Program-made: the position numbers and the translations under genes
NCBI RefSeq assembly: GCF_016903815.1
Contig: NZ_CP069973.1
Direction: 5' to 3' (one strand)
Length of the DNA: 64,000 nt
From: Escherichia coli
GTDB lineage: Bacteria; Pseudomonadota; Gammaproteobacteria; Enterobacterales; Enterobacteriaceae
The notes under the pieces: model-generated
The model's database searches: none
Told to the model about the DNA's origin: nothing
The model's input: the letters and a program-made list of their open reading frames with translations, nothing else
Shown: one piece after another, positions 6,493 through 47,092 of the stretch
Layout: the number at the start of each line of letters is the position of its first letter
Numbering within the stretch: the stretch's first letter is position 1

Positions 6493-6632
6493 TGGGACCC
6501 CCTTTTGATTTCTTGTTTGACACTTGCAGTTGCCAGACCGCAAGGTGTTTTAACAAATCAAAAGGGGTTTTAATAACTGGCTTAAAGCTGAAAGCTTTCC
6601 GGAACCCCCAGCCTAGCTGGGGGTTTTCTGTG

Positions 6633-10267: not shown

Positions 10268-11170
<903 letters not shown>

Positions 11171-11175
11171 CTCCC

Positions 11176-12228
11176 TCACCCCCATTCCCGCATCCGCTGA
11201 TGCAACGTCAACGACGGCTTCTCGGCAAACAGCTGCTGGTAATCCGTGGCAAATTGCCCCAGATGCCAGAATCCCCACTGCATGGCGGCGTCTTTTACCG
11301 TTGTGCTTTGCGACCACGGGCTTATCAGTTCGCGGCGTACGGCGTTCAGGCGAATGCGTTTCAGCCACGCGTTCGGGCCAATGCCTAAAATAGCGTGAAA
11401 CGCGTTTTGTAGCGTGCGGCGACTGACATGCAGTTGATTACACAAGTCCAGCACCGTCACCGGTTCGGACATGTTTTCCAGCACATATTCACGGGCGCGG
11501 GAAAGTAATCTACGGTAACTCTGATGACTGATGCTTTCCGCCGTCACCATTGGCTGCGCTTCTTCCAGCATCGCCCCCATCGCCATGAGCAAATTATCCC
11601 CCAGCACTTTTCGCACCGCAGGCTGATGCAAATTCTCGGGATTCTCGCAAAACGTCGCCAGCGCCTGTTGGACAAAGCCCCACAGCGCGGCTTTATGCTG
11701 TTCTTTCACTTCCAGCGCCGACTGGCTACGCAGCATATGTAATACCCGATCCGGATTATGCAAAAAGTTAGCCTGACGGGTGATGACATCTTCAGAAAGC
11801 ACTACGCCCAGGATCGTGTAATCGTCCGGCGTACTTAATTCAAACTCGGTTCCACCAGGGCGCGTCGCTATTTCTGCGCTTCCCAGACATTGCGAACCGA
11901 TAAATCCCTGCTCACCGCGCGTCGCCGGAATGCCAAACCAGAACGAGTTCGGCCAGACCAGGCACGACTGACGCAGCGCCAGACCGGTGTATTCACGAAA
12001 AACCTGAATATCATCGAGTAGAATTTCCGTAAATTCACCATGAAACTTGCCCGGATGCAGCTGATCGTAAATCTGCTGCCAGGCGGTAATCGTCAAAGCA
12101 TGTTCATAGACATCCGTTGTCTGTCGTTGATGAACATTATCCACTTCGACCTTCGGCGTGAGCTTCAGGTTTTCGGGTAAGGGTTCATGATAAAGATGGT
12201 GCAAATTGGCTGTACGGGTCTTTTTCAT
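11176..12228 (-). CDS. eutR: AraC-family activator of the eut operon, EutR (350 aa)
   Basis: ORF track 11176..12228; C-terminal AraC-type HTH; last gene of eut cluster. Confidence 0.93.
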
Positions 12229-12273
12229 GATGTTAATGCCGGGTGTTGTAGGACACCCGGCACCTCCGACAGG

Positions 12274-12774
12274 TTAATGGGGCTTGAGACGATAACGACT
12301 ACTGCGTTTACGTAACGTCCCGGCAGAAAAGAGCTGTTCGAGCGCATTTCTGGCTTTTTCCAGCGGCCAGCCAAAGTGGGCAGCCACTTCTCCTGCCGTC
12401 ATTCCCTGACGTACTGATGTTAACAGCGCCAACAACTCGTCAGCAGATTCCACGACGATAACTGGCGCGTCGGGTTCCTTTACGGGTTGCTTCGGCTGGC
12501 GGTTAAAGCCAGTAACCAGCCACTGGGTGTCATCGTCTGGCCGACCGATCTCCTTACGGCTGATGACACGCCCGGTACGCATCGCGGCAGCACAACCTGC
12601 GTCCAGCGCCGCACGACACGCCGCCAGATCGCCTTCCACCACCAGCGTTAGGCGACCAGGGTCAAGCACTTCGTGACTGAGCAGACGAACGTTAGCTGCT
12701 TTGAGCATGGCATCCGCTGCATCTATCGCGGCGACCATGCCGTCCACTTCCAGCAATCCCAGTGCATTGATCAT
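12274..12774 (-). CDS. eutK: Microcompartment shell protein EutK (BMC domain plus C-terminal nucleic-acid-binding-like domain, 166 aa)
   Basis: ORF track 12274..12780 (TTG-initiated call); ATG at 12772-12774 with GGAGG SD gives MINALGLLEVDGMVAA... Confidence 0.9.
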   Translation of the reverse strand: MINALGLLEVDGMVAAIDAADAMLKAANVRLLSHEVLDPGRLTLVVEGDLAACRAALDAGCAAAMRTGRVISRKEIGRPDDDTQWLVTGFNRQPKQPVKEPDAPVIVVESADELLALLTSVRQGMTAGEVAAHFGWPLEKARNALEQLFSAGTLRKRSSRYRLKPH

Positions 12775-12786
12775 CGGCAACCTCCG

Positions 12787-13446
12787 TTACGCACGCTGGA
12801 TTGGATTACGCGCGATTTCCAGCACTGCATCGGTAAAAGCGTTACAGGCTGCTTTACACGCGGCCTGGCTACCGGTTAAAAATGCTGCCGAGTAGTTGGT
12901 TTCAGACGGCGGCGGGACATAGGTCACCAGCTGCACGTCGGCAGATTTCAACGCCGCATCAATGCCGTAGGTCGCTTCCAGCGGCGGTGCCACCAGATAC
13001 GCCATCGGATCGCCAAGCGTGATCCCGGCGGTTGATGAGAGATAAGAACCGGTACGCGAAACTACATGTGCCAGGAAAGCTGTGTTTTCTGCGTCATTAG
13101 CCCACTGGAAAGCCGCGCCATTTTCAATATGCGCAACCATCGCATCCAGACCAGCACGCACTTCCGCCGGGTTTGGCCCACCGAGCATAATCAGCACTTC
13201 ACCGGCAGTCGGTGACGGTCCGTGTGCAGCTCCCGCATACAGCGAGCGGCCATACACCACTTCGACCATCGCCTGCTTGGTCGCTTCGTCAGCCGCAATG
13301 TAGGTGACGTCATCGGAATCAGCAGAAATCAGCCCAAGGCTACGAATATGCGGCGGCAATTTCAGTTCACGCGCAAATTCGGCGTTAACAGAGGCAATCA
13401 CCCGCATGGCGGTGACCGACGGTCGAATCAAATCTAAAGCTGGCAT
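12787..13446 (-). CDS. eutL: Microcompartment shell protein EutL (tandem BMC domain, 219 aa)
   Basis: ORF track 12787..13446. Confidence 0.93.
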
Positions 13447-26254: not shown

Positions 26255-26287
26255 GGAAAACCGCTTACCCTGAATATTCAGGGTAAG
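26255..26287 (-). terminator. Putative rho-independent terminator of maeB (perfect 24-bp palindrome plus T-tract)
   Basis: cttaccctgaat/attcagggtaag perfect inverted repeat at 26264-26287, followed on the minus strand by CGGTTTTCC; about 20 nt after maeB stop. Confidence 0.65.
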
Positions 26288-26306
26288 CGTGAGAGTTAAG
26301 AATGAA

Positions 26307-40930: not shown

Positions 40931-40964
40931 AAAAAAGGCGACATGCCAATGTGTCGCCTTTTTC
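40931..40964 (+). terminator. Rho-independent terminator of acrD
   Basis: Stem aggcgaca / tgtcgcct with 8-nt loop followed by TTTTT, 10 nt after acrD stop. Confidence 0.7.
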
Positions 40965-46925: not shown

Positions 46926-47092
46926 AGATACCTCAACAATATATTCATTATAGAAATGATCGTAGGTGGTTCAGAGGAAGATTACCACAGGAAAGCGGGA
47001 TGAAATGGCGGAGGAATGAGCGTTCAATGCACATCTTATGAGAGCGGTTGTCTTGCCGTGCCAGCTGCACGGCAAGATGATGAGCAGAAAAA

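Follow-up and report, generated by a model that had tools for sequence, protein, structure and literature searches.

A Conserved Hairpin Between eutK and eutR as a Putative Folded Spacer in the eutR Ribosome-Binding Site

The intercistronic spacer between eutK and eutR of Escherichia coli carries a GC-rich RNA hairpin that is conserved with covariation across genera and lies between the only strong Shine–Dalgarno (SD) sequence of the spacer and the eutR start codon. Judging from the comparison of orthologous junctions, this hairpin may well be a constitutively folded spacer within the eutR ribosome-binding site (RBS), that is, part of an accommodated or split RBS of the type known from genes 25 and 38 of bacteriophage T4, an interpretation to which a probability of about 0.55 is assigned. 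The 30S subunit would pair with the GGAGG sequence located right after the eutK stop codon on the eut mRNA, and the GC-clamped stem-loop, starting 0–2 nt past the SD, would remain folded and be looped out. The AUG codon, which lies 8–11 unpaired nt past the 3' base of the stem, would thereby reach a workable distance from the SD despite a linear separation of 34 nt. Selection would keep the stem paired because its unfolding would leave the only SD too distant from the AUG. The distal SD would then set the level of EutR synthesis from the long operon transcript and would feed the autoinduction of EutR.

Organization of the eutK–eutR Junction

All coordinates refer to the window, which is the whole 64-kb stretch of E. 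coli DNA that was analysed. RefSeq names the two genes on matching E. coli DNA eutK and eutR, and positions 12000–12500 of the window are matched in 5,419 of 5,426 complete genomes. The eutK coding sequence (12274–12780, minus strand), a 168-residue open reading frame present both in the list of open reading frames and in RefSeq, encodes a BMC shell protein with an EutK_C domain and ends with the UAA stop codon at 12274–12276; the Pfam domains BMC and EutK_C are found on its orthologues. The eutR coding sequence (11176–12228, minus strand, with the AUG at 12226–12228) encodes the AraC-family activator of the eut operon, which consists of 350 residues. This start position is supported by the conservation of the N-terminal MKK across genera.

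The spacer from eutK to eutR on the minus strand is 45 nt long (12229–12273) and reads in the mRNA sense, from stop codon to start codon, UAA-CCUGUC-GGAGG-UGCCGGGUGU-CCUACA-ACACCCGGCA-UUAACAUC-AUG. The eutK stop codon is followed by the linker CCUGUC (12268–12273, minus strand), whose 6 nt lead up to the SD; this length recurs in nearly all junctions bearing the hairpin. The SD, GGAGG (12263–12267, minus strand), is invariant in the junction alignment and gives the best anti-SD duplex, and it becomes GGAGGUG (12261–12267) if the first two bases of the stem are included. The hairpin (12237–12262, minus strand) is made of the 5' arm UGCCGGGUGU at 12262–12253, the loop CCUACA at 12252–12247 and the 3' arm ACACCCGGCA at 12246–12237. 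An unpaired, A-rich tail of 8 nt, UUAACAUC (12229–12236, minus strand), connects the stem with the AUG, and the corresponding tails of the orthologues are 8–11 nt long and contain no SD-like sequence.

The UAA codon of eutK is in frame with the eutR start codon (12226–12276). The 45 nt between them correspond to 15 codons, none of which is a stop codon, and read-through of the UAA would give an EutK–EutR fusion. The shared frame is probably incidental, the spacer elsewhere being 37–50 nt long, and 97 nt in Intestinirhabdus. At the other end of eutR, its stop codon (11176–11178, minus strand) is separated by only 5 bp from that of the convergent hemF gene (11168–11170, plus strand), and a simple scan detected no intrinsic terminator between or just past the two stop codons. 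Since the stop codons are so close and no intrinsic terminator was detected, the hemF and eutR transcripts probably overlap.

Hairpin and SD Sequence in E. coli

The initial annotation of this region had described a perfect stem of 9 bp in the spacer. The inverted repeat is indeed perfect, but the stem extends to 10 bp and closes a loop of 6 nt. The same annotation had taken GGAGG, about 34 nt from the AUG, to be the only strong SD, and this is confirmed by sliding the anti-SD sequence along the spacer. The duplex of the 16S rRNA 3' end at UCGGAGGUG has a free energy of −10.8 kcal/mol, and the second-best site, 25 nt from the AUG, reaches −3.8 kcal/mol. The distance from the end of GGAGG to the eutR AUG is 34 nt on the linear sequence and 8 unpaired nt once the 10-bp stem folds. 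The effective spacing of about 10 nt that had been proposed is therefore correct for a 9-bp stem but shortens to 8 nt with the full one.

The E. coli hairpin alone has a folding energy of −18.6 kcal/mol, and the 101-nt context of the hairpin folds with a z score of −2.07 relative to shuffled sequences. The minimum free energy fold of the E. coli sequence has two extra G–U pairs, which take the last two G residues of GGAGG; this extension into the SD is missing in roughly half of the orthologous junctions. When 100 nt of eutK context is included, folds of the naked RNA often have the SD paired, inconsistently between species. In Salmonella (L064) and Citrobacter (L005), the eutK codons UCUGACGGAG, located about 100 nt upstream of the eutR start codon, are predicted to pair with UCUGUCGGAGG, a segment that includes the SD. 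This predicted pairing is G–U-rich and is not seen in E. coli or Klebsiella; where present, it would mask the SD unless eutK is under translation.

Under a first-order Markov model, 0.5 perfect stems of 10 bp or longer with loops of 3–8 nt are expected by chance per 64 kb. The window has eight such stem hits, which correspond to five distinct hairpins including the one between eutK and eutR. The eutK–eutR hairpin exceeds chance, and its conservation with covariation across genera settles the point.

Conservation and Covariation of the Hairpin

A species scan with one genome per species yielded 63 loci with EutR, and ten further junctions, including those of S. Typhimurium and Phytobacter, were obtained through EutR homologues. 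Within E. coli, 5,310 of 5,390 genomes share an identical 76-nt segment around the hairpin, which is present in a single copy, and the most divergent copy has changes in the loop and flanks with the stem unchanged. The orthologous junctions have a common layout consisting of the stop codon, 6 nt, GGAG(G), 0–2 nt, the hairpin, 8–11 nt and the AUG, which is found in Escherichia, Salmonella (arizonae and Typhimurium), Citrobacter, Klebsiella, Pseudocitrobacter, Phytobacter, Pluralibacter and Intestinirhabdus. Conservation of the stem wherever the SD is conserved had been named in the initial annotation as a check on its proposal. In agreement with it, about 34 distinct junctions without a proximal SD, several metagenome contigs among them, combine GGAG(G) with an abutting, covarying hairpin. 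Among the loci L001, L057, L058 and L059 are a 'Citrobacter sp.' MAG contig, in which EutR and the spacer are 100% identical to those of E. coli, and short contigs (about 400 bp) under the labels Bacillus hominis and Prolixibacteraceae, with EutR fragments that are 95–98% identical; these oddities probably reflect mis-binning or contamination with E. coli DNA.

The two arms of the stem change in a compensatory manner. The corresponding segments of the 5' and 3' arms are UGU and ACA in E. coli, CGU and ACG in E. whittamii, GGGGCUUC and GAAGCUUC in the Citrobacter freundii group, GCGUCC and GGGCGU in Salmonella, AGCGU and ACGCU in Klebsiella grimontii, AAGUGC and GCGCUU in Pseudocitrobacter, GUCGGG and CCCGAC in Phytobacter, and GCCGAAUGCC and GGCAUUCGGC in the junction L069. 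The CCGG/CCGG base of the stem, which is otherwise invariant, also covaries, being replaced by GUCGG/CCGAC in Phytobacter and by GCCGAA/UUCGGC in L069. In an alignment of 30 junctions to a covariance model built from four Escherichia sequences, 95% of the stem cells are standard pairs and two-sided changes occur in nine of the ten pairs. None of 500 shuffles reached the observed values of pairing and covariation, a control that overstates the significance because the covariance model imposed the structure on the alignment and the lineages share ancestry. If the 3' partners are displaced by 1–3 columns, the pairing drops to 33–50%. The covariance-model alignment replaced an earlier one made with MAFFT and RNAalifold, in which the upper stem was misaligned and the covariation term was only weak, and the hairpin geometry was tabulated by hand, anchored on the stem base.

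Pairing amounts to 95.0% in the sense orientation versus 83.9% in the antisense orientation, with G–U in 34 of 280 stem cells, and the sense-strand hairpin is more stable than the antisense one in 11 of 14 lineages. Because both pairing and stability favour the sense strand, the structure under selection is an RNA on the eut transcript and not a DNA palindrome or an antisense RNA. The loop varies freely in sequence and in length across lineages (3–12 nt by the contiguous-stem measure), conservation does not extend to the upper stem, and in most species the sequences flanking the stem are single-stranded. The stability of the hairpin ranges from −11 to −23 kcal/mol and is between −18 and −23 kcal/mol in most lineages. 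The variable loop and the unpaired flanks fit a structural spacer better than a sequence-specific operator. In the junction L072, AAGGAG stands upstream of the hairpin in place of GGAGG, and anti-SD complementarity is retained; this shift of register argues that SD function, rather than one particular sequence, is conserved.

Spacing Between the SD Sequence and the Start Codon

The hairpin is 20 nt long in L067, 22–28 nt in the others and 77 nt in Intestinirhabdus. On the linear sequence, the AUG is 30–86 nt away from the SD, and excision of the hairpin leaves a remainder of 8–13 nt, mostly 8–11 nt. An extra palindrome is nested in the hairpin loop of Intestinirhabdus alba (L028, approximately 1918–1991), where the spacer has a folding energy of −50 kcal/mol, and the SD and the 9-nt tail of this 77-nt structure are unaltered. 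In those of the tested core lineages that bear GGAGG, the best anti-SD duplex has a free energy of −10 to −10.8 kcal/mol and is located 30–36 nt from the AUG; in Intestinirhabdus, it is 85 nt away. L068, L069 and L071 carry a weaker GGAG (−5.6 to −6.6 kcal/mol). No comparable anti-SD site was found within 18 nt of the AUG in the core lineages tested.

The eutR orthologues of Brenneria, Dickeya, Pectobacterium, Samsonia and Lonsdalea, which lack the hairpin, have GGAGG 9–10 nt from the AUG, and Buttiauxella and Hafnia have AAGGAG or GAGGAG 5–6 nt from the eutR AUG. Since GGAGG stands at 9–10 nt in the hairpin-less orthologues, the hairpin looks like an insertion just after the SD of an ordinary GGAGG-N9-AUG site, one that would have been tolerated and later retained owing to its folding out of the way. 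Other lineages combine a hairpin with a proximal SD. Yokenella (L030) and L072 have the upstream SD, the hairpin and a proximal SD as well; L070 retains a stable hairpin with a proximal GGAG and has lost the upstream SD; and Entomohabitans (L073) has a different hairpin together with a proximal G-rich element. Because it is kept in lineages with a proximal SD, the hairpin seems to be older or more persistent than a strict dependence on the distal SD, and it may have a role beyond bridging, for example in stability or processing. The overall pattern, although correlative, is what would be predicted for an SD-bridging hairpin. The idea of such a bridge put forward in the initial annotation is thus favoured by the comparison of the junctions, but the lineages having both the hairpin and a proximal SD do not conform to it. 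That annotation also suggested that the hairpin could couple eutR translation to read-through from the operon promoter, or act in processing or stability.

Known Classes of Elements Ruled Out

An intrinsic terminator is ruled out by the lack of a U-tract or terminator-like site on either strand within 11900–12900; the tail (UUAACAUC, UUAAAAGAUC) is A-rich in all species. The hairpin does not belong to the REP/BIME repeats, as it occurs at a median of one place per E. coli genome, and a search of the 64-kb window with the covariance model found no second copy, except for the reverse strand of the palindrome itself. Rfam families give only chance matches to the hairpin below threshold, with CRISPR-DR8 at 16.4 bits (gathering score, 39) and nhaA-I at 15.5 bits (gathering score, 37). 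An RNA thermometer or SD-sequestering hairpin is rejected because the SD lies outside the conserved stem and because a stem of this stability would not melt at physiological temperatures. The sRNA MavR is not the partner of the hairpin, its target being located towards the 3' end of the coding sequence of eutR (PMC8565329).

An alternative eutR start with its own SD is also rejected: the E. coli spacer contains no in-frame ATG, GTG or TTG, and MKK is the conserved N-terminus. In some assemblies, gene callers place the eutR start in the hairpin region (L065, 1201–1221; L067, 1201–1218; L074, 601–627). The resulting miscalled products include P0013, with 357 residues starting from a UUG in the hairpin loop, and P0016, with 356 residues. 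P0001, with 359 residues, comes from a single 2.3-kb contig in which a 1-nt deletion in the 3' arm creates an in-frame GUG; this deletion probably reflects an error of sequencing or else a rare variant.

A Plausible Accommodated RBS and Its Known Counterparts

The junction combines the features by which split RBSs are recognised, namely a sole SD that is farther than about 15–20 nt from the start codon, a hairpin that fills the excess distance and leaves a functional unpaired spacing (about 5–11 nt), compensatory conservation of this hairpin, and a normal RBS in relatives without it. From these features we infer that ribosomes use the distal SD across the folded hairpin and that this use sets EutR synthesis. 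A ribosome terminating at the eutK UAA would, given the dimensions of its footprint, cover the linker and part of the SD and not the stem. Since the terminating ribosome would not reach the stem, the hairpin could stay folded on the translated operon mRNA, and subunits might pass from eutK to the SD close by. Against an accommodated RBS stand the effective spacing of 8–11 nt, which together with the width of the helix comes near the upper limit of functional distances, and the predicted pairing of SD residues in E. coli and in folds of the naked RNA. EutR being a low-level regulator, SD-independent initiation on the unstructured, A-rich start region could also suffice. A weak constitutive promoter, P2, precedes eutR in Salmonella; in five species, a search of the 400 nt preceding eutR gave no sigma70 promoter match for P2, even at 8 of 12 positions.

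The closest counterparts are the split RBSs of phage T4. There, a hairpin shortens the SD–AUG distance from 22 to 5 nt in gene 38 and from 27 to 11 nt in gene 25, and these sites were confirmed by mutagenesis, reporter fusions, DMS probing and phylogeny (Nivinskas et al. 1999; Malys and Nivinskas 2009; reviewed in PMC3014915). The eutR site resembles them in that the linear distance from the SD to the AUG is too great (22 and 27 nt for the T4 genes and 34 nt for eutR), a stable hairpin would restore the spacing (5 and 11 nt in T4, 8–10 nt in eutR), the site is intercistronic (gene 26–25 in T4, eutK–eutR here), and the structure is present in close relatives, with a normal RBS without the structure in more distant ones. 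It differs from the T4 sites in being chromosomal and bacterial, in the larger size of its hairpin (26 nt, and 77 nt in one genus) and in the persistence of the hairpin in some lineages with a proximal SD. Moreover, the function of the T4 sites was shown experimentally, whereas that proposed for the eutR site is derived from sequence comparison.

Two other systems show partial similarity. In E. coli thrS, a folded hairpin within a split RBS is accommodated without unfolding (Sacerdot et al. 1998, as described in PMC3936740), and the eutR hairpin likewise falls inside the ribosome-binding region of an mRNA from the E. coli chromosome. However, the thrS SD adjoins the AUG and the hairpin, a sequence-specific operator for ThrRS, divides them from an upstream single-stranded ribosome-binding segment, whereas in eutR the hairpin stands between the SD and the AUG and lacks a conserved loop. 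REP sequences and other intercistronic stabilisers share with the eutR hairpin a GC-rich stem-loop without a U-tract, located between cistrons and near the upstream stop codon. Unlike them, the eutR hairpin is single-copy, has no Rfam or REP-like match and always holds the same position with respect to the SD and the AUG.

Alternative Explanations

It is conceivable, but rather unlikely, that the hairpin is mainly an element of mRNA stability or processing and that its adjacency to the SD is secondary. It might act as a 3' barrier shielding eutS–eutK from 3'-to-5' exonucleases after the eutR part of the transcript has decayed, or as a 5' stem-loop stabilising a processed or P2-initiated eutR transcript. 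A stable, GC-rich stem-loop without a U-tract between cistrons would be suitable for such a role, and known intercistronic stabilisers such as the REP sequence in malE–malF resemble the eutK–eutR stem-loop. The hairpin is also kept in L070, L072, Yokenella and Entomohabitans despite a proximal SD; the 3' part of the transcript may be unstable, with eutR and hemF converging without a detectable intrinsic terminator; and eutR mRNA undergoes decay by RNase E that is countered by the sRNA MavR (PMC8565329). A stabilising role, however, leaves unexplained why GGAG(G) always abuts the stem, why the tail of 8–11 nt and the effective spacing remain constant over hairpins of 20–77 nt, and why a proximal SD is absent from the core clade. 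A translational damper or insulator seems still less probable. Here, the strong SD would be held too far from the AUG, so that EutR would be made at a low level or only by ribosomes terminating on eutK, through re-initiation or coupling, which would limit the regulator relative to the abundant structural proteins. Consistently, the conserved distance of 6 nt between the stop codon and the SD would place the terminating ribosome on or next to the SD, the stem starts 11–12 nt past the eutK stop codon, regulators are typically poorly translated, and a partial G–U extension reaches into the SD in E. coli. Stable REP hairpins within about 15 nt of a stop codon, a range into which the eutR stem falls, reportedly stall terminating ribosomes and lower the expression of the upstream gene, an observation attributed to Liang and Deutscher. 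But a damper would have no need of a conserved, accessible SD at a fixed geometry, since the absence of an SD would do; the G–U extension into the SD is not conserved; and the hairpin-less orthologues carry a strong GGAGG at normal spacing, so strong eutR translation is tolerated there. Neither the stability reading nor the damper reading is exclusive, as both are compatible with an accommodated RBS.

The position between the SD and the AUG would also be ideal for translational repression, for which thrS provides a precedent, and the hairpin could in principle be an operator of the thrS type for an RNA-binding regulator, with EutR or the nucleic-acid-binding C-terminal domain of EutK as candidates. 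This is a very improbable explanation. The EutK C-terminal domain contains an unexplained helix-turn-helix (PMC5821096), and the hairpin is present at nearly all junctions where an EutK_C-bearing eutK precedes eutR; this co-occurrence, however, is confounded by phylogeny, and Buttiauxella has the same EutK C-terminus without such a hairpin. The loop and the upper stem are not conserved either, leaving only a generic GC clamp; this argues against recognition of a specific sequence, though a protein might still bind the hairpin by its shape. There is accordingly only a slim chance that a protein bound to the stem, either the EutK C-terminal domain, whose gene ends 12 nt upstream, or EutR, would tune EutR synthesis; if it did, the production of the shell would be linked to the level of the activator by a thrS-like translational feedback in a metabolic-organelle operon. 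Hardly credible is a neutral or chance palindrome, such as the functionless relic of a small palindromic insertion. The hairpin does resemble an insertion into a GGAGG-N9-AUG site, and a further nested palindromic insertion is seen in Intestinirhabdus, but compensatory changes across at least eight genera, a stem that is invariant in about 5,300 E. coli genomes, the single-copy nature of the element and the low chance expectation (about 0.5 per 64 kb) all stand against the absence of function.

Implications for EutR Synthesis

EutR and EutBC compete for adenosylcobalamin, and the long operon transcript is the source of EutR autoinduction (Sheppard and Roth, as cited). Because the site would set the amount of EutR made per operon transcript, the hairpin would be part of the EutR feedback loop. 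The only post-transcriptional mechanism reported for eutR in the literature searched is the sRNA MavR (PMC8565329). This literature contains no description of the hairpin; the original Salmonella papers (Roof and Roth; Sheppard and Roth; Kofoid) were outside the search and could mention it.

Bridging of a distant SD by a hairpin has been proven in hardly any genes apart from 38 and 25 of T4. If the accommodated RBS proposed here is correct, a chromosomal case with such deep conservation would show that bacterial operons use this device, and the hairpins of 20–77 nt with a constant remainder would form a natural series on the size of the structure that the 30S subunit can accommodate. The eutR site would then be a chromosomal example of a rare, known initiation device in a pathogen-relevant operon and not a new principle.

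Other Structured Elements in the Window

A scan of the whole window with Rfam at gathering scores returned only STnc490, an Hfq-binding sRNA, as a full-length match on the minus strand at 6502–6625 (146 bits versus a gathering score of 56). This match overlaps a perfect 10-bp hairpin at 6603–6625. Three more perfect hairpins whose stems reach 10 bp or more are located at 26262–26289, 40932–40963 and 47051–47077, and the one at 40932–40963 (AAAAAGGCGACA...UGUCGCCUUUUU) resembles a bidirectional terminator.
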